A stretch of DNA of 64,000 bases from Kofleriaceae bacterium (lineage in GTDB: Bacteria > Myxococcota_A > Polyangia > Haliangiales > Haliangiaceae), in NCBI GenBank assembly GCA_046597055.1, contig JBKJLC010000222.1:25586-89585 (forward strand), in the 5' to 3' direction. Position numbers and translations under genes: made by a program. Each line of letters begins with the position of its first letter. The first letter of the stretch is position 1. The notes under the pieces are model-generated. The model was not told the origin of the DNA and did not search any database. It saw only the letters and a program-made list of their open reading frames with translations. Below are positions 3,647 through 45,037 of the stretch, one piece after another.

Positions 3647-5298
3647 AGCGCGCGCTGTGCGCGCTCGCCTTGCTCGCGGGCGCCTGCGGCGGCGATGACG
3701 ACGACGCCGGTCAGACCGGACCCGACGCCGGCGAGCTCAGCCCCGATGCGGCGACCTGCGGGATCGCGCCGGGCGGCGCGTGCGCTGATCAGACCCTGCA
3801 GACCTGCGTCGGCGGCGAGCTCCAGACCCAGGACTGTCGCGCCACGATGGCGACCTGCCGCTTCGACAGCGCCGCCGGTGCCGCGGCCTGTATCGACGAG
3901 TGCGCCGCCGCCAGCGTCGACGCGGCCGGCACCTGCGTCGACCGCTCGGTGCGCCGCTGCGAGGTGGTCGACGGGCGCAACACCGTGGTGAGCGACACCT
4001 GCGGCGCGGGCGAGACGTGCGCGCCCGCGGGCCAGCCCGCGGCCTGCATCGGCGATCCGTGTCGCGACCTCGGCCCCCAGGGCAAGTGCGACGGCAACAC
4101 GCTGCTCCGCTGCGTGGGTGGCGCGCCCTCGCCCACCGACTGCGCCGGCACCAGCCAGGTGTGCGCGTACGTGGACAACACCGCCGGCTACGCCTGCGTC
4201 GCGCCCGCGGCGACCGGCGCGATGGTGGTCACCGGGACCGTCCGCTACGAGGACCGGGCGCCGCTCAACGACGGCGCGCTCGGCGCGATCACCGCGATGG
4301 ACGTCCGGGGCGCGCTGATCACCGTGGTCACCGACGCCGACAGCATGGTGGTCGCCACCGCGCTGACGTCGGATGACGGCAGCTACACGCTGCGCTACGA
4401 CGCCGCGGTCGGCACGATGGTGCACGTCATGGTGACCGCGCACAGCCCGCTGCCGGCGCGGCCGGTGCGGGTGCTGCGCAACCAGACCCAGCTGCACGGG
4501 TTCGGCGGGGCCAGCTTCGCCGCCGCCGCGAGCACGACCCAGGACCTGCTGGTCACCGATGCGTCAGCCGCGTCCGAGGCGTTCAACATCCTCGACCAGA
4601 GCGTGCTGGCGATGGACACGATCCGGACCGCGATGGGCAACCCGACCCCGACGCCGCTCACCGCGCGCTGGTCGCGCGGCTCGAACCAAGGCACCTACTA
4701 CTCCAACCGGACGATCTTCCTGCTCGGCTCCACCTCGGACGACGACGGCTACGACGACACCGTCATCCTTCACGAGATCGGCCACTTCGTGGAGGACACC
4801 GAGGGTCGCTCTGACTCGCCCGGTGGCGGCCACGACGGCTCGCCGACCGATCCGACCCTGGCGTGGAGCGAGGGCTTCGCGACCTACTTCGCGATGGCCA
4901 CCCGCGGCGCGCCCTACTACATGGACTCGAACTCGGGCGGCGGCTGGGGCTACGACGCCGACACCTCGCTGACCCGGGCCCAGGCCGCGGGCGCGCTCGA
5001 CCAGAACGTGAGCGAGGACATGGTGAGCCAGATCCTGTGGGACCTCGGCGACGGCGGCAGCAACGACGACGATCCGCTGAGCTCGTCGATGCACGCGACG
5101 CTGCTGCGGATCCAGCCGAGCTACCTGGCCCGGGTCATGCTGCGCTCGGTCGGCGCTGACGGGGTCGACCTGGTCGACTTTCTCGACGGCTGGTTCCTGC
5201 GCGGGGGACTGTCGACCTGCGCGGGCGTCCGGTCGGTCGTCTCGACCACGCGGACGTTTCCGTACGACTACGCCGGTCCCGGCGGCCGCTGCCCGTAG
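3643..5298 (+). CDS. Lipoprotein with Cys-rich repeats and C-terminal gluzincin-type zinc metallopeptidase domain
   Basis: GTG start MKRALCALALLAGAC; about 3 Cys repeats; VILHEIGH plus downstream AWSEGFATYF. Confidence 0.8.
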   Translation: MKRALCALALLAGACGGDDDDAGQTGPDAGELSPDAATCGIAPGGACADQTLQTCVGGELQTQDCRATMATCRFDSAAGAAACIDECAAASVDAAGTCVDRSVRRCEVVDGRNTVVSDTCGAGETCAPAGQPAACIGDPCRDLGPQGKCDGNTLLRCVGGAPSPTDCAGTSQVCAYVDNTAGYACVAPAATGAMVVTGTVRYEDRAPLNDGALGAITAMDVRGALITVVTDADSMVVATALTSDDGSYTLRYDAAVGTMVHVMVTAHSPLPARPVRVLRNQTQLHGFGGASFAAAASTTQDLLVTDASAASEAFNILDQSVLAMDTIRTAMGNPTPTPLTARWSRGSNQGTYYSNRTIFLLGSTSDDDGYDDTVILHEIGHFVEDTEGRSDSPGGGHDGSPTDPTLAWSEGFATYFAMATRGAPYYMDSNSGGGWGYDADTSLTRAQAAGALDQNVSEDMVSQILWDLGDGGSNDDDPLSSSMHATLLRIQPSYLARVMLRSVGADGVDLVDFLDGWFLRGGLSTCAGVRSVVSTTRTFPYDYAGPGGRCP

Positions 5299-36517: not shown

Positions 36518-39500
36518 ATGGAACCTGACGCGCCCGCTCCTCGCCGTGGTTCGGCCACCGCTCGCCGGCGCCGCAAGGTCGCGTGGACCAAGCGGCTGCG
36601 CCGGGTCGGGATGGCCTGGCAGAACGCGCTCGAGATCATGCGCGCCGGCCGGCTCACCGCCCCCTACGGCGCGCCGTTCGAGGTCGTCCACGCGACCCCC
36701 ATCTACCGGCTGCGTCATTACCGCAACAGCGACACCACGCCCGCCACCACGCCGCCGCTGCTGCTGGTGCCGCCGCTCATGGTCGCCAGCGAGGTCTACG
36801 ACATCGCGCCCGATGTGAGCGCGATCGCGTACCTGACCCGCAGCGGCGTCGACGTGTGGGTCGTCGACTTCGGCGCCCCCGAGCGCGAGGAGGGCGGCCT
36901 CGAGCGCACGCTCGACGATCACGTGCGCGGGGTGTCCGAGGCGATCGACCAGGTCCGCCAGCGCACTGGCCAGGACGTCCACCTCGCCGGCTACTCGCAG
37001 GGCGGCATGTTTGCCTACCAGGCGGCGGCCTACCGGCGCAGCGCTGGCATCGCGTCGATCATCACGATGGGCAGCCCGGTCGACATCCACCGCACGGTGC
37101 CGCTCGCCGAGCAGCTGGTCGAGCGCATGGTGTCGGGGCTGTCGCGCGCGATCGCGGGACCACTCGCGCACATCGACCGCCTGCCCGGCCGGGTCACCTC
37201 GACCGGCTTCAAGCTGCTGAGCGTGCGCAAGGAGGCCGGCCAGCTGGTCGAGTTCGTGCGCAAGCTGCACGACCGCTCGGCGCTCGAGAAGCGCGAGGCC
37301 CGGCGCTTGTTCCTGGGCGGTGCCGGCTTCGTGGCCTGGCCGGGCCCGGCGCTGCGCAAGTTCATCAGCGAGATCGTGGTCGCCAACCGGATGACCTCGG
37401 GCGGCATCGTGATCGACGGCCACACCACGACCCTGGCCGACATCGACTCGCCGATCCTCTACTTCTTCGGCGAGCGCGACACCATGGGCCGGCCCGCGGC
37501 GGTGCGCGGCATCCGCAAGGCGGCGCCGGCGGCCGACATGATCTACGAGGTGGCGGTCAAGGCCGGCCACTTCGGGCTGGTGGTCGGCTCGACCGCGCTG
37601 ACCGTGACCTGGCCGACCGTGGTCGAGTGGATCCGCTGGCAAGCCGGCGACGGCCCCCGCCCGGCGCGGATGGTCGAGCCCGGCGCCACCACGTCGATCC
37701 CGACGATCGGCCCCGACGACGAGGACGCGGACGACGACGTCGAGGACGATGACATCGACACCGCGTTCGGCGAGATGCAGTTCGATCTCGAGCTGGTGCA
37801 GGACGTGCTGGGCAAGACCGCGCGCGCGGTGATGGAGCGGGTCGGCGACGTCACCCAGGACGTGTCCGACTACCTCGACAACCTGCGCTGGCAGGTGCCG
37901 CGCCTGCACCGGCTGCGCAGCCTGCGCGACGACACCGCGATCTCGCTCGGCAAGGAGCTCGCCGAACAGGCCCGCGAGATCCCCGATCAGACCTTCTTCA
38001 TGTGGCGCGACCGCGCGTTCACGTACGCCGACGCCAACCGCCGGGTCGACGCGGTGGTCCGCGGCCTCATCCAGTCCGGCGTCCGCCCCGGCCACAAGGT
38101 CGCGGTCGTGATGCAGAGCCGGCCCAGCTACCTGTCGGTGGTCGCCGCGCTGTCGCGGCTGGGCGCGGTCGCGGTGCTGATCGCGCCGGCGACGCTGGCG
38201 TCGGCGCTCACCCGCGCGCTCGACGTCGGCGAGGCCGAGCGGGTGATCACGGATCCCGAGACCGTGGCGGCGGTGCGGACCAGCTGGGCCGGGCCGCTGT
38301 TCGTCCTCGGGGCCGCCCACGACCAGCGCGCGCTGCCGCCCGGCGTGGTCGACCTCGAGCAGATCGATCCCGACGCGGTCGTGATGCCGACCTGGTTCCG
38401 TCCGGATCCCGGACGCGCGCGCGACCTGGCGCTGGTGTTCGTGTCCGGCGGTCGCTTCGAGACCCCGCGGGCCAGCCGCATCACCAACCGGCGCTGGGCG
38501 TTCTCGGCGCTCGGCGCCGCCGCCACCTGCACGCTGACCAACCGCGACACCGTGTATTGCTGCCTGCCGCTGCACCACCCGACCGCGATGCTGGTCGCCG
38601 CCGGCAGCGCGCTGTGCGGCGGCGCGCGGCTGGCGCTGGCGTCGCGGTTCGCGCCCGACGTGTTCTGGGCGGAGGTCCGGCGCTACGGCGTCACCGTGGT
38701 CTTCTACGCCGGCGAGATGTGCCGCTCGCTGGTGCGGGCGCCGTTCGCGATCGGCGAGCAGAACCATCCGGTCCGCCTGTTCGCCGGCTCCGGCATGCGC
38801 CCGGATCTCTGGCGCAAGCTGACCGAGCGGTTCGGCTCGGGCGTGCTCGAGTTCTACGCGTCGACCGAGGCGTCGGCCGTGCTCGCCAACGCCTCGGGCG
38901 AGAAGATCGGCGCGGTCGGCCGGCCGCTGCCCGGCAGCCCCGAGCTGGCGATCGCGGCCTACGACTTCGACGCCGACGACCTGGTGCGCGACGGCAACGG
39001 CCGGGTGACCCGGGCCCGGGTCGATCAGCCCGGCATGCTGATCGCGCGCCTCGACACCGCGCGCGGCATCGCCGATCTCGCGCATATCGCGCCGACCCGG
39101 CTGCTGCGCGACGCGCTGGCCCCGGGCGACACCTGGTACGCCAGCGGCGATCTGCTCAAGATCGACGGCGACGGCGACCACTGGTTCGTCGACCGGCACG
39201 GCGACATGATCCGGACCACGGGCGGACCGGTCGCCAGCCGCCTGATCGAGGACGCGCTCCACCAGGTCCCGGGCGTCGACGCGTGCGTCGCGATCGGGTT
39301 GGCCGACGTCGAGCGCGTCGGCAAGCAGGTCGCCGCGGCCGCGTTCGCGCTCGCGCCCGGCGCCACGCTGGACTTGACCGCGCTCGGCCAGGCGATCGCG
39401 ACCCTGCCCGACCACGCCCGCCCGCGCCGGCTACGCCGGGTCGAGGCGATCCCGATGACCGACGGCTTCCGCCCGCTCAAGAAGCCGATCCGCGACCTCG

Positions 39501-39613
39501 GCTTCGGTGACGGTCCCGACGTCTGGGCCTGGGACCCGGCGACCGCGAGCTTGCGCACCACCGCCCGCACCGCCAGTCCGCCGCCGGCGCCGACCCACGA
39601 CGCCCGGCCCTGA
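36518..39613 (+). CDS. Fusion of PhaC-like alpha/beta hydrolase and FATP-like acyl-CoA synthetase (Rv1683-like)
   Basis: PLLLVPP, AGYSQGG, GERD, GHFG; acidic linker; YCCLPLHH, FYAGEMCR, EFYASTE, SGDLL, FVDRHGD. Confidence 0.88.
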   Translation: MEPDAPAPRRGSATARRRRKVAWTKRLRRVGMAWQNALEIMRAGRLTAPYGAPFEVVHATPIYRLRHYRNSDTTPATTPPLLLVPPLMVASEVYDIAPDVSAIAYLTRSGVDVWVVDFGAPEREEGGLERTLDDHVRGVSEAIDQVRQRTGQDVHLAGYSQGGMFAYQAAAYRRSAGIASIITMGSPVDIHRTVPLAEQLVERMVSGLSRAIAGPLAHIDRLPGRVTSTGFKLLSVRKEAGQLVEFVRKLHDRSALEKREARRLFLGGAGFVAWPGPALRKFISEIVVANRMTSGGIVIDGHTTTLADIDSPILYFFGERDTMGRPAAVRGIRKAAPAADMIYEVAVKAGHFGLVVGSTALTVTWPTVVEWIRWQAGDGPRPARMVEPGATTSIPTIGPDDEDADDDVEDDDIDTAFGEMQFDLELVQDVLGKTARAVMERVGDVTQDVSDYLDNLRWQVPRLHRLRSLRDDTAISLGKELAEQAREIPDQTFFMWRDRAFTYADANRRVDAVVRGLIQSGVRPGHKVAVVMQSRPSYLSVVAALSRLGAVAVLIAPATLASALTRALDVGEAERVITDPETVAAVRTSWAGPLFVLGAAHDQRALPPGVVDLEQIDPDAVVMPTWFRPDPGRARDLALVFVSGGRFETPRASRITNRRWAFSALGAAATCTLTNRDTVYCCLPLHHPTAMLVAAGSALCGGARLALASRFAPDVFWAEVRRYGVTVVFYAGEMCRSLVRAPFAIGEQNHPVRLFAGSGMRPDLWRKLTERFGSGVLEFYASTEASAVLANASGEKIGAVGRPLPGSPELAIAAYDFDADDLVRDGNGRVTRARVDQPGMLIARLDTARGIADLAHIAPTRLLRDALAPGDTWYASGDLLKIDGDGDHWFVDRHGDMIRTTGGPVASRLIEDALHQVPGVDACVAIGLADVERVGKQVAAAAFALAPGATLDLTALGQAIATLPDHARPRRLRRVEAIPMTDGFRPLKKPIRDLGFGDGPDVWAWDPATASLRTTARTASPPPAPTHDARP

Positions 39614-39742: not shown

Positions 39743-39755
39743 GTTCAGTCCCGGG

Positions 39756-39827
39756 TGAGGGCGGTCAGACTCGAACTGACAACCAGCGGATTAAGAGTCC
39801 GATGCTCTACCATTGAGCTACGCCCCC
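39756..39827 (-). tRNA. tRNA-Lys (anticodon CUU), CCA not encoded
   Basis: GGGGGCGTAGCTCAATGGTAGAGCATCGGACTCTTAATCCGCTGGTTGTCAGTTCGAGTCTGACCGCCCTCA folds as cloverleaf. Confidence 0.95.
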
Positions 39828-39869
39828 GGAATTACTTACTTCTTAGTCTAGTCTCGGTACCTTTTCAAG

Positions 39870-39943
39870 TGAGCTCGGGGCGACTCGAACGCCCGACCTA
39901 CGGGTTCGAAGCCCGGCGCTCTATCCAACTGAGCTACGAGCCC
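39870..39943 (-). tRNA. tRNA-Arg (anticodon UCG), CCA not encoded
   Basis: GGGCTCGTAGCTCAGTTGGATAGAGCGCCGGGCTTCGAACCCGTAGGTCGGGCGTTCGAGTCGCCCCGAGCTCA; loop CT-TCG-AA. Confidence 0.93.
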
Positions 39944-39990: not shown

Positions 39991-40258
39991 GCGGCGGCCG
40001 AAATGATCGTGCCCGCGGCGGCATGGCGCACCCCTCCGTGGGGTAGCGCCTCTGGGGGTCAGCCCCCAGACAAGCGACCTCACGCACGTCTCCCGGGGGC
40101 AAAGTCACCAGGAACACGCGCAGTTTTCAGCCCTTAGGGAGTAAGAACGAGCTTCCAAAAAGCGGTCAGGCCGCATTAGTATTGCCTCGCCTTGCCGGTG
40201 AACGGGGATCGCGTCAGCGACCGCCCCAGGTTCACCGACTACCCGAGGGGGACTATCC

Positions 40259-43200
40259 GTGTTCAGCAAAGACCGCCGCATCAACCTGGTCCTGTCCCTC
40301 TTCTTCTTGCTGCTGAGCGCCTGCGGAGGCCTCGGCAGCGGCTGCGGCTGCACGACGCAGCCGTTGCCGGCCGGCGGCCTTCCCAGCGACCAGACCATCG
40401 AAGGCGGCGGTCAGATCCGGGTGACCCGGGCCGGCTTCGCCAAGCTCACCTCGGTCATCCCCGCGCTGCTCAACGATCAGCTGTCCGACGGCTTCTGCAT
40501 CGGGCAGCAGAGCATCCTCGGCGCCAACGTCTGCTACGAGAACCAGGGACCGACCTGCAACCCGGGTTGCCGGGTCAACGTCGCGCTGCAGGAGACCCGC
40601 CTGCAGGTCACCAACGCGCAGACGCTCAACGTCTACATACGCGCCAACATCAGCGTGCCGGTCCGCATCGACCCGCCGATCTTCGGCGCGTGCACGATGA
40701 CGGTCACCGCCAACAACCTGTCGGCGGATCTCGATATCGGCTTCGGCATCAACCCGACCACCGGCGAGATGACGCTCCGGCTGAATCGCATCAACAGCTA
40801 CGACCTGTCGGGCGTCAGCTACTCGGGCTGCACCGTCATCAGCTTCCTCGCCTCGCTGGTCACCAGCCTGGCCGGCACCATCCTCGGCGAGTTCGTGGTC
40901 GACCTGCTGACCCCGACGATCAACGATCTCATCCAGGGCTTCCTGCCCAGCCCGCTCGGCATCGAGGGCATGGTCGACGTCGGCGCGCTGCTCGCGGGCG
41001 TGTCGCCCGGCACCGAAGGCTTCATGGAAGCGCGCATGGTCCCAGGCGGATACGTGTCGCTACAGAACAGCGGCATGTCGCTGGGGCTCATCACCGGCCT
41101 CAACGCCGACCAGGACCCGACCACCCGCACCGCGCAGCTCGACAGCGAGCCGGCCTACTGCGTCCCGCCGATCCCGGCGCCGGACTTCGCGGCCGCGCCC
41201 GCCAGCCTGCCCCGCGTCGCCGGCCGCAACACCTTCACCTTGGCCGCGGCCGAGGAGTTCCTCGGCATGCCCGAGCCGGCCGACGATCTCGTGATCGGCC
41301 TGTCGGAGACGATGCTCGACCTCGCCGGTCACCACCTGGTCACCTCGGGCGGCATGTGCCTCGGCGTCGGCACCTCGCTGATCGCCCAGCTCAAGCTCGG
41401 CACGATCGGCCTGCTGGTCCCGTCGCTCGGCGAGCTCGGCAAGGGCGACGAGCCGCTCTTGCTGGTCACCCGGCCCCAGCGCGCGCTCGACTTCACGGTC
41501 GGCGAGGGCACCGAGGCGTCGCCCGCGTTCACGATCCACATCAAGGAGTTCGAGGTCGACTTCTACGGCTTCATCTACGAGCGCTACACGCGCGCGTTCA
41601 CGATGTCGCTGGACCTCGACGTCGGCGTGAACCTCGAGTTCGTGCAGATGCCGGGCATGCCGGCCCAGGTCAAGCCAGTCCTGGTCGGCCTGACCTCGTC
41701 GAACATCGACATCACGGTGCTCAACAACGAGTTCGTGAAGGAGACCCGCCAGCAGCTCGAGGCGGTGCTGCCGACCGTGTTCGACCTGGCGCTGCCGCTG
41801 CTCGGCGACGGCCTCGGGCCGATCGACGTGCCGTCGTTCGCTGGCTTCACGCTCAACAACCTGCGGGTCCAGAAGGTCGTCACCGCCCAGGACGAGTTCG
41901 TGGCGATCTACGCGTCGCTGGGCGCGTCGCAGATGATGCGCACCACCGCGGCCGATCAGTATCCGTCGCTCGGCCCGGTGGTCGACCGCCTCGACCAGGG
42001 CGTCGGCATGCCGAGCTGGCCGTCCCGGGTCGAGACCCCGATCGCGAGCCTGCGCTCGGTGGTGGTGCCGACCCCGGCCCAGATCCGCGGCGCGCTGATG
42101 GGCGAGGCCGGCGGCGCGCTGCCGACCGTGACCATCGAGGTCGCGCACCGCGACGACCACGGCCGCGAGCTCGAGTGGAGCTACAACCTCGACAACGGCC
42201 TGTGGCGCCCGTACTCGTCGGCCACGCCGCTGGTGATCGCCGACCGCGCGTTCGCCTGGCAGGGCCACTACACGATCGGCCTGCACGCCCGGGTCAAAGG
42301 CGACTACCGGACCACCGCGGTCCAGCGGATCGACCTGCCGGTCACGATCGACTCGATGGGCCCGAAGATCCGCGTCGACGAGGCGCGGCTGACCGACCGC
42401 GGCCTGTACGTGCCGGCCACCGACGCGGTGTACGAGGACGGCCTCGAGTGGGCGTTCGGCACGATCACCTCGGACCAGCCGGTCACCGGCTGGCAGCCGT
42501 CGCCGACCCTGGCTCGCGCCCAGGTCACCGCGCTCGAGACCGACGGCGAGATCCTGGTCTTCGTCCGCGACCCGAGCGGCAACGTCTCGATGGCGATCGC
42601 CCGCAGCAACTTCCACGGCGCGGCCGGCGAGGGCGGCTGCAGCTGCCGCTCGACCGGCGGGCCCGACACCGGCTCGATCCTGCTGCTGATGCTGGTCGCC
42701 GGCGTCCTGCTGGGGGCGGGGCGGTCGCGCCGCCCTTTTGCGCGGCGCGCGGTCGTCGCCCTCGGGGCGGTCGCGCACAAGGCTAGCCGGACCGTGCGGG
42801 CGGGCGGGCGCCTGGCGCCGATGCTGGCGGTGTGGGCCGGCCTGAGCCTGGCGCTGTCGATGGTCCCGGGCTGCTCGTGCGGCTCGGCCGCTGGCCACGC
42901 CTGCGAGCTGTCCGAGGACTGCGACGACCTCGAGTGCCCCGAGGGCCAGATCGCGATCTGCTTCGAGGGCGAGTGCCTGTGCACCGACGACGTGCCGTAC
43001 GGCAAGATCGGCCTGATGTCCGACGTCGCGGTGGCGCCCAACGCCGACGTGGTGGTGTCGGCCTACGCCCAGAACCACGGCGACCTGGTGGTCGCGCGCT
43101 TTGCCGGCGCCGGCCGGATCGCCGACGAGGCCTGGGAGTTCGTCGACGGCGTCCCCGACGGCCCGGTCGCCCTGCCCGAGTCCGATGTGCGCGGCGGCAT

Positions 43201-44242
43201 CCTCGACCCCGGCCCCGACGTCGGCCTCTACACCTCGGTGGCGATCGGCACCGCCGACGTGCCGATGGTCGCGTACCACGACAAGACGACCGGCTCGCTC
43301 AAGTTCGCGGCGAAGTCCGGGGGCGCCTGGCAGAACCACGTGGTCGATGCCGGCACCGGCACCATCGCCCCCGAGATCGGCGGCGAGCAGGTCGGGCTCT
43401 ACAACGCGCTGTCGCTGCGCACCGACGACGGTCGCCCGGCGATCGCGTACCTCGCGATGATCTCGCAGGGCGACGGCCTGGTGGTCGGCGAGGTCCGCTT
43501 CGCCCAGGCCACCAGCGCCTTGCCGGCCGGCTCCACCGACTGGCAGGTGACCGTGATCGACATGATGGCGCTGCCGCCGGTCGACCCGCTGAGCCCCGAC
43601 CCGTACCCGATCCCGGCCGGCATCGGCCTGTTCATCGAGATGGCCCGCGACGCCGCCGGCAACCCGGCGATCGTCTACTACGACCGCCAGGGCGGCAACC
43701 TCAAGCTCGCGCGGTGGAGCACGGCCAACAGCCGCTTCGACCTCAGCGTCATTGCCGGCCAGACCGGCGATGACGGCTGGTACCCGTCGATCGCCTTCGA
43801 CGCCCAGGACGTGGCCCACATCGCCTACCAGGGCGCCGACCACGACGACGTCTTCTATCTCAACACCATGTCGAACACGCGCGAGCTGGTCGACGACGGC
43901 TACCGGATCGTCGGCACCACTCCCGAGGGGCTGCCAAAGCCGGAGTTCCACTTCGTCGGCTCCGACACGCAGATCGTGACGACGTCGACCGGGCCGTACG
44001 TGATCTACCAGGACTCGACCAGCCACGAGCTGCTGTACGCGAGCAAGCAGGGTGACGACTGGGTCCCGACGCCCCTGGCCGGCAACGAGATGACGTTCCA
44101 GGGCGCCTACGGCTTCTATGCGTCCGCGGTCGCCGGCGGCAACGAGGTGGTCGTCTCGACCTGGGTGATCCACCAGCAGCTCGTCGACAACTGGGTCGAG
44201 GTGTTCCGGATCCCGCTCGGCACCGGCCGCATCCTGGACTGA
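40259..44242 (+). CDS. Large surface lipoprotein: BPI/LBP(TULIP)-like region, Ig-like region, internal MYXO-CTERM, second lipoprotein signal, beta-propeller-like C-terminal domain
   Basis: GAGGGG SD and GTG; LSAC lipobox; GGCSCRSTGG-TM-RSRR near aa 792-824; LAVWAGLSLALSMVPGCSC near aa 856-874; repeated GLYTSVAI/PAIAY blades. Confidence 0.85.
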   Translation: MFSKDRRINLVLSLFFLLLSACGGLGSGCGCTTQPLPAGGLPSDQTIEGGGQIRVTRAGFAKLTSVIPALLNDQLSDGFCIGQQSILGANVCYENQGPTCNPGCRVNVALQETRLQVTNAQTLNVYIRANISVPVRIDPPIFGACTMTVTANNLSADLDIGFGINPTTGEMTLRLNRINSYDLSGVSYSGCTVISFLASLVTSLAGTILGEFVVDLLTPTINDLIQGFLPSPLGIEGMVDVGALLAGVSPGTEGFMEARMVPGGYVSLQNSGMSLGLITGLNADQDPTTRTAQLDSEPAYCVPPIPAPDFAAAPASLPRVAGRNTFTLAAAEEFLGMPEPADDLVIGLSETMLDLAGHHLVTSGGMCLGVGTSLIAQLKLGTIGLLVPSLGELGKGDEPLLLVTRPQRALDFTVGEGTEASPAFTIHIKEFEVDFYGFIYERYTRAFTMSLDLDVGVNLEFVQMPGMPAQVKPVLVGLTSSNIDITVLNNEFVKETRQQLEAVLPTVFDLALPLLGDGLGPIDVPSFAGFTLNNLRVQKVVTAQDEFVAIYASLGASQMMRTTAADQYPSLGPVVDRLDQGVGMPSWPSRVETPIASLRSVVVPTPAQIRGALMGEAGGALPTVTIEVAHRDDHGRELEWSYNLDNGLWRPYSSATPLVIADRAFAWQGHYTIGLHARVKGDYRTTAVQRIDLPVTIDSMGPKIRVDEARLTDRGLYVPATDAVYEDGLEWAFGTITSDQPVTGWQPSPTLARAQVTALETDGEILVFVRDPSGNVSMAIARSNFHGAAGEGGCSCRSTGGPDTGSILLLMLVAGVLLGAGRSRRPFARRAVVALGAVAHKASRTVRAGGRLAPMLAVWAGLSLALSMVPGCSCGSAAGHACELSEDCDDLECPEGQIAICFEGECLCTDDVPYGKIGLMSDVAVAPNADVVVSAYAQNHGDLVVARFAGAGRIADEAWEFVDGVPDGPVALPESDVRGGILDPGPDVGLYTSVAIGTADVPMVAYHDKTTGSLKFAAKSGGAWQNHVVDAGTGTIAPEIGGEQVGLYNALSLRTDDGRPAIAYLAMISQGDGLVVGEVRFAQATSALPAGSTDWQVTVIDMMALPPVDPLSPDPYPIPAGIGLFIEMARDAAGNPAIVYYDRQGGNLKLARWSTANSRFDLSVIAGQTGDDGWYPSIAFDAQDVAHIAYQGADHDDVFYLNTMSNTRELVDDGYRIVGTTPEGLPKPEFHFVGSDTQIVTTSTGPYVIYQDSTSHELLYASKQGDDWVPTPLAGNEMTFQGAYGFYASAVAGGNEVVVSTWVIHQQLVDNWVEVFRIPLGTGRILD

Positions 44243-44347: not shown

Positions 44348-45037
<690 letters not shown>

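Follow-up and report, generated by a model that had tools for sequence, protein, structure and literature searches.

Can a single bacterial reading frame supply two separately anchored envelope proteins? Polyproteins are thought to be rare in bacteria, and the question is posed here by an open reading frame (ORF) of Kofleriaceae bacterium (Myxococcota_A; GenBank assembly GCA_046597055.1). The window analysed is a stretch of 64,000 nucleotides of contig JBKJLC010000222.1, in which the ORF occupies positions 40259..44242 of the forward (+) strand, starting with GTG at 40259, ending with TGA at 44242 and encoding 1327 amino acids (aa) with no interrupting stop. Its product comprises, in order, a lipobox, a double TULIP, two β-sandwich domains, a MYXO-CTERM sorting tag, a basic loop, a second signal, a cysteine module and a β-propeller, and both the ORF call and the full-length homologues make it a predicted precursor of two exported proteins. 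We consider it likely that myxosortase and signal peptidase II (LspA) divide this single precursor into two lipid-anchored proteins, although we infer the topology and both cleavages. An earlier note on this DNA had already read the ORF as a possible polyprotein, and that part of its reading is supported by the signals themselves, their conservation, naturally split relatives, and the presence of myxosortase and LspA genes.

The junction between the two halves

The protein begins with a lipoprotein signal peptide (40259..40324, +) whose lipobox, LSA↓C22, was assigned from the translation and a homologue alignment; Cys22 is kept in 113 of 120 listed homologues, the remaining seven being gapped there. 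A Shine-Dalgarno (SD)-like site precedes the GTG start (40245..40252, +), and at all 30 close loci (L001-L030) an SD-like motif precedes a GTG that lies 21-22 codons before the first lipobox cysteine. A sigma-70 promoter was looked for and none was found.

The MYXO-CTERM lies far from either end of the protein (42629..42733, +), and consists of the motif G-C794-S-C796, a transmembrane (TM) helix at about aa 806-821 and the basic tail RSRR. The check proposed in the earlier note, a search of this segment with the TIGR03901 hidden Markov model (HMM), gave a match to aa 791-825 above the cut-off of 20 bits, both on the whole ORF (20.7 bits) and on the excised segment (25.1 bits). As had been remarked, no stop follows: 502 residues separate the tag from the C-terminus, and terminal placement is found only in split or stand-alone relatives. 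Genome-wide, TIGR03901 gives 37 matches over its cut-off, 35 of which lie 23 residues or fewer from the stop and two of which are internal (this ORF and a gene on contig C138). These counts rest on TIGR03901; a custom junction HMM, which returned 12 matches, is insensitive to terminal tags. The tag helix and arginine cluster are present in the 102 fused ORFs collected from the loci described below, seven of which were annotated by hand.

The tag is followed by a basic loop (aa 822-851; 42722..42811, +) which, judged by charge and conservation, is predicted to be cytoplasmic and to serve both as the tail of the tag and as the n-region of the second signal. Among the 102 fused ORFs it carries a net charge of +2 to +12 over a length of 2-76 residues. 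Next comes a second hydrophobic segment with the lipobox VPG↓C872 (42812..42874, +), recognised as an internal lipoprotein-type signal by its conservation and by the split relatives; it ends V869-P870-G871-C872-S-C874, with Cys872 at nucleotide 42872. None of the 120 listed homologues, among which the query is counted, lacks Cys796, Cys872 or Cys874. The residue at −1 of the second lipobox is Gly, Ala or Ser in 101 of the 102 fused ORFs, although the rule used to call the lipobox took this residue into account, and the h and c regions together span 9-32 residues with an acidic residue in only two of the 102, a property partly built into the same rule. The paired CxC motifs were also considered as a possible disulfide between the two products, but their raw agreement (76/101) gave a median p of 0.5-0.6 in tests on independent pairs, and the idea was dropped.

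The earlier note had named a stop codon near 42730, missed through misassembly, as one finding that would undo its reading. One might suspect misassembly, or two genes recently joined by a chance read-through, in a source assembly of 303 contigs with 7.55% contamination. However, position 42730 is bridged, without differences and without a stop, by contigs of three runs (X1, X3 and X4, all from one study, X1 being possibly the source), the junction is kept in homologues, and the fusion occurs in over a hundred other genomes, complete ones included. The chance that the fusion is an artefact of this kind is thus essentially negligible.

A second alternative, also raised in the earlier note, is that translation also begins inside the ORF, giving the propeller lipoprotein besides the long product. 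Both candidate codons, GTG 42794 (V846) and ATG 42821 (M855), do exist in frame, and the loop of 47 of the 102 fused genes contains at least one ATG, GTG or TTG. Nevertheless, the position is not conserved: 55 of the 102 lack any such codon in the loop, 14 lack one over the whole span between the tag cysteine and the last basic residue, seven lack one between that cysteine and a point 10 residues short of the lipobox, and GTG 42794 itself is missing in the closest relative, L002. Nor are ribosome-binding signals in evidence, since a start codon at the junction has an SD motif ahead of it in eight of 102 genes, compared with 63 of 88 true starts with a called N-terminal lipobox; counted by codon (ATG, GTG and TTG examined), the figures are 5/149 at the junction and 708/7009 elsewhere. 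None of the three codons is enriched at the junction, where GTG accounts for 80 of 223 valine codons against 4031 of 10067 elsewhere. With no conserved start, no enrichment and few SD motifs, an internal start is highly improbable, and a single translation product is therefore the likely source of both halves.

Fused, split and stand-alone relatives

A protein search returned 357 relatives, of which 120 are listed (query included) under names that include Kofleriaceae; its length window left out short split forms. Matches to the protein were obtained in 139 of 147 genomes from the order (a tally that includes the unpublished G037 and G038, on which none of the conclusions rests); among 301 sampled genomes of the phylum, 104 have a match to the N half and 166 to the C half. 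From the order and phylum searches we took 110 loci, comprising the best plus divergent matches: 101 are fused (102 ORFs, one of them from the unpublished G038), two are split, five have the N half alone, with the tag at its end, and two are frameshifted. A second set of 80 named loci contains 73 fused ORFs, four split loci, two cut by a contig end and one frameshifted. Cultured strains, too, have the gene, among them Sorangium cellulosum So ce56 (fused, in the second set) and Polyangium fumosum DSM 14668; at 25-30% identity to the window protein, the orthologue of So ce56 (CAN93762.1 / A9GSE4) is labelled a hypothetical protein. The TULIP family as a whole numbers 985 representatives at E values up to 1e-30 (clustered at 50% identity). 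Among the best 150 of these, 114 are fused to a propeller, 110 with an automatic lipobox call and four without, while 26 end at the tag, one runs through the lipobox with no propeller match and nine look truncated or were left uncalled. Homologues that are always split, which the earlier note had named as a further refutation, are therefore not what is found; most are fused.

Six relatives (L032, L045, L132, L138, L187 and L190) are split at the junction, and they provide the strongest evidence for the second signal. In these, gene 1 stops shortly after the arginine cluster, so that it ends in an ordinary terminal tag, and the start of gene 2 overlaps that stop (TGATG in three cases, ATGA in two and GTGA in one) and opens a complete lipoprotein signal. 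On an unrooted FastTree tree of 170 N halves, from which nine duplicate records of the second locus set were left out, the six splits need five changes, each one required by strongly supported branches. All but one of the six are nested in fused clades, and L187 sits on a long branch; this nesting suggests that the splits arose by fission. As these natural splits show, each half carries a complete sorting signal of its own. A separate group of relatives (L102, L103, L104, L109 and L110), with three separate origins on the tree, has a TULIP half with a terminal MYXO-CTERM and no propeller gene downstream.

These relatives also bear on the reading in which nothing is cut and the product stays in the inner membrane through a two-helix hairpin, with its two large parts in the periplasm and its cysteines used for acylation or disulfides. 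The fusion has been retained across many families, so a covalent link could matter, and the lipobox of the window protein is non-canonical. Against this stand the five independent splits at the junction, which indicate that the link is dispensable, and the poor conservation of the helices and loop, which is unlike that of a structural hairpin: the loop is the least conserved region (mean consensus agreement 0.27, the TULIP and propeller reaching 0.69-0.71), and the spacing from cysteine to cysteine across the junction varies from 49 to 91 residues among the listed homologues. Moreover, distant members often have classic lipoboxes (LAAC, LGAC, LAGC), and in some distant members the arginine cluster of the tag directly abuts the second hydrophobic segment, down to 14 residues before the lipobox. 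An uncut protein is thus quite improbable.

Processing machinery and the proposed pathway

Two-step processing would call on enzymes that the genome should encode. It contains one protein with a myxosortase core, which scores 103.5 bits with NF040914 (cut-off 100) and falls under the cut-offs for MrtX, MrtC and MrtP, and it encodes LspA. Of the 239 myxosortase-positive genomes in the phylum sample, 102 have the TULIP half, against two of 62 myxosortase-negative ones; related genomes in these counts are not independent. The combination of an N-terminal lipobox with a MYXO-CTERM is not peculiar to this ORF, being found also in four of the 35 terminal-tag proteins of the genome.

In the pathway that we propose, the N-terminal lipoprotein signal would start Sec export of the TULIP and β-sandwich part, until the MYXO-CTERM helix halts transfer. 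The arginine-rich loop would be kept in the cytoplasm and act as the n-region for the second hydrophobic segment, from which export would restart for the last 456 residues. Lgt and LspA would then lipidate the precursor and cut it at Gly871↓Cys872 to give a propeller lipoprotein, as in standard lipoprotein biogenesis. Myxosortase would cut after lipidated Cys794/Cys796, yielding a TULIP protein of ~775 residues anchored at both ends, and a helical hairpin of about 75 residues would be discarded. The myxosortase steps are modelled on the scheme of Guo, Haft and Wall, as set out in their report (PMC11980579). More speculatively, the two products might work as a 1:1 unit at the envelope or surface, where the TULIP would move or take up lipids at sites recognised by the propeller.

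Several observations weigh against this pathway. An uncut hairpin, too, might make use of the conserved signals. The tag score on the whole ORF is barely over the TIGR03901 cut-off. The strict lipobox pattern is [LVI][ASTVIG][GAS]C, which the VPGC of the window protein misses through its proline at −2; only 21 of the 102 second lipoboxes fit it, and 39 of the 102, this one included, have proline at that position. The last objection is softened because proline also stands there in 13 of the 262 N-terminal lipoprotein signals predicted for the genome, and because the second gene of the split relative L032 starts with the signal NPG↓C. Finally, full-length Lgt was not found in the 94% complete assembly, where the partial match scores 25.8 bits against the TIGR00544 cut-off of 118.9. 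Longer Lgt-like matches are present in all 20 relatives searched, while the cut-off is passed by four of 21 genomes; the scores fall well below it in all 12 same-genus genomes searched, which suggests a divergent Lgt in the genus. In one genus only, two Lgt-like genes lie ~5 kb downstream of the orthologue (G140:C24 and G141:C111).

It could also be that only one cut is made, in which case LspA would free the propeller while the internal tag stays uncut and holds the TULIP in the inner membrane on the leftover hairpin. Cleavage of the internal MYXO-CTERM of MXAN_5598 (see below) is a proposal, and the N half already has a lipid anchor at its N-terminus. However, the invariance of the tag cysteine, the ordinary terminal tag at the end of split and stand-alone relatives, and the near restriction of the family to myxosortase-bearing genomes all speak against this reading. 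We regard a single cut as unlikely, and processing at both sites as the better account of the locus.

Folds of the halves, genomic setting and known systems

No Pfam family was matched by either half in a search of the database, and Atlas matches for the protein were all under 0.9 and serve as leads only. The model of the N half (residues 22-796) has a predicted local distance difference test (pLDDT) score of 90.5 and contains, according to the model and Foldseek, a BPI/LBP/CETP-like double TULIP fold at about aa 46-556 (40394..41926, +), followed by two β-rich domains of sandwich or Ig-like type, assigned from modelled secondary structure, at about aa 596-782 (42044..42604, +). The five best Foldseek matches of the TULIP half are all BPI, LBP or CETP, with E values from 5.8e-19 to 3.3e-15: BPI (1bp1) at 5.8e-19 with a TM-score of 0.57 by target length, LBP (4m4d) at 1e-17 and CETP (2obd) at 3.3e-15. 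As modelled, then, the N half has a double TULIP fold resembling that of BPI, in agreement with the TULIP part named in the earlier note, and by analogy with TipA/TipB (below) the fold suggests lipid uptake or transfer.

The C half had been described as a lipobox-like PGC, a cysteine-rich module and a propeller-like domain, and all three were recovered. Its model (872-1327; pLDDT 93.1) consists of a small module with six cysteines, invariant in alignment A2 (aa 882-908; 42902..42982, +), and a predicted β-propeller fold at about aa 913-1326 (42995..44236, +), supported by VIA-align and Foldseek. In VIA-align the propeller matches CylK with Z 30.3 (root-mean-square deviation 3.1 over 320 aligned residues), the BP39L lectin with Z 29.1 and PLL with Z 27.5, and many unrelated propellers follow at Z 21-26; in Foldseek, PLL/PHL lectins match at E values of about 5e-11 with 10-13% identity. 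Because lectins and the enzyme CylK score alike, we assign neither a specific function nor a lectin label. A mutual-information analysis of 413 fused sequences gave no coherent signal between the halves above phylogenetic noise. In some distant members (L063, L068, L070 and L074-L083), long insertions of cysteine-rich repeats separate the second lipobox from the propeller.

The surroundings of the gene show no conserved operon and give no functional hint at the order and Polyangia loci. Upstream and divergent lie, by tRNA annotation, tRNA-Lys(CTT) and tRNA-Arg(TCG) (39754-39827 and 39869-39943, −), a pair that all 13 of the order-level loci checked have and that is absent from the 17 checked outside the order; PfkB-family and other genes are the neighbours in Polyangia. 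A 1031-aa fusion of an α/β-hydrolase domain with an AMP-binding (acyl-CoA synthetase-like) domain lies further upstream (36518-39613, +), and a stand-alone phoU (PF01895) directly downstream (44348-45037, +).

How, then, does this gene compare with known systems? In Bradyrhizobium japonicum, fbcH, the precursor of cytochrome b and c1, reportedly yields two envelope proteins from one gene through an internal signal sequence; unlike the present ORF, it is said to be cut in the manner of signal peptidase I, with neither sorting tag nor lipidation. A close likeness is MXAN_5598 of Myxococcus xanthus, for which the available text reports an internal MYXO-CTERM between two exported parts, as here, and proposes both myxosortase processing and an origin by gene fusion (PMC11980579). 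It differs in that its downstream part is an outer-membrane barrel with an OmpA domain, whereas here a propeller follows a lipoprotein signal and a TULIP lies upstream; in addition, that text describes no second signal peptide, and the present fusion, unlike MXAN_5598, is found widely in the phylum and has been split repeatedly. The same genome holds a second internal MYXO-CTERM over the cut-off, on C138:3341-10375 (−) with the tag at 5174-5263, where the arginine cluster runs into a signal peptidase I-like AAA↓Q; this protein has an N-terminal lipobox and, judged by eye, a barrel-like region and an OmpA-like tail after the signal, like MXAN_5598. A third internal tag-like motif, outside the TIGR03901 matches, is encoded at C6:1548-6380 (−), and leads into a GVA↓Q signal in a protein with an OmpA-like tail. 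In both of these genes, which are of the MXAN_5598 type, the tag leads into a signal resembling those cut by signal peptidase I, so that the joining of tag to signal is a recurring design.

Other systems share parts of the arrangement. HVO_0405 of Haloferax volcanii likewise has its tripartite sorting signal in mid-protein, and its central site is cleaved by ArtA (PMC7157517); it is archaeal and a strain-specific fusion, processed by a different enzyme, with no second export signal described in the accessible part of the report. The TraA/MrtX pathway has in common with the present gene the cysteine motif, TM helix, arginine cluster, N-terminal signal and a genomic myxosortase (PMC11980579; 10.1101/2023.06.07.544157), but here the tag lies well inside the protein and an N-terminal lipobox is present as well. 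TipA/TipB of the predatory Bdellovibrio bacteriovorus includes a BPI-like double TULIP, whose gene lies directly upstream of that of its partner with a 4-nt overlap, as in some of the split relatives; it consists of separate genes, and the available text mentions no MYXO-CTERM, propeller or lipoprotein (10.1101/2025.09.09.675085). The N half's double TULIP fold is shared by BPI, LBP and CETP and by the bacterial DUF4403 proteins (PMC6791001). The N half differs from BPI, LBP and CETP in its low identity (12-13%), its extra β-sandwich domains and its predicted lipid anchors at both ends. Internal tags have thus been published before, and what appears from sequence to be new is the version with a lipoprotein signal and the TULIP-propeller family; a literature search that left out supplements and most subscription papers found neither such a family nor a MYXO-CTERM joined to a lipoprotein signal.

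It is possible, if doubtful, that the tag and second signal peptide form a general, reusable polyprotein cassette of the Myxococcota, which in this old and widespread family would supply, at a fixed 1:1 ratio, a BPI-like lipid-transfer tube with a lipid anchor at each end and a lipidated propeller, the two making up an undescribed surface machine that takes lipids from prey or neighbouring membranes. If the two cuts are real, myxosortase and LspA, both housekeeping proteases, would make two lipid-anchored envelope proteins from each such ORF in many Myxococcota, and the annotation of these genes as encoding single proteins would be wrong. The large shift in size on processing would also be useful for following the lipidation and cleavage steps of MYXO-CTERM proteins, as HVO_0405 has been for archaeosortase. 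Lastly, the unannotated family of BPI-like TULIP proteins is a candidate agent of lipid traffic in predatory bacteria.

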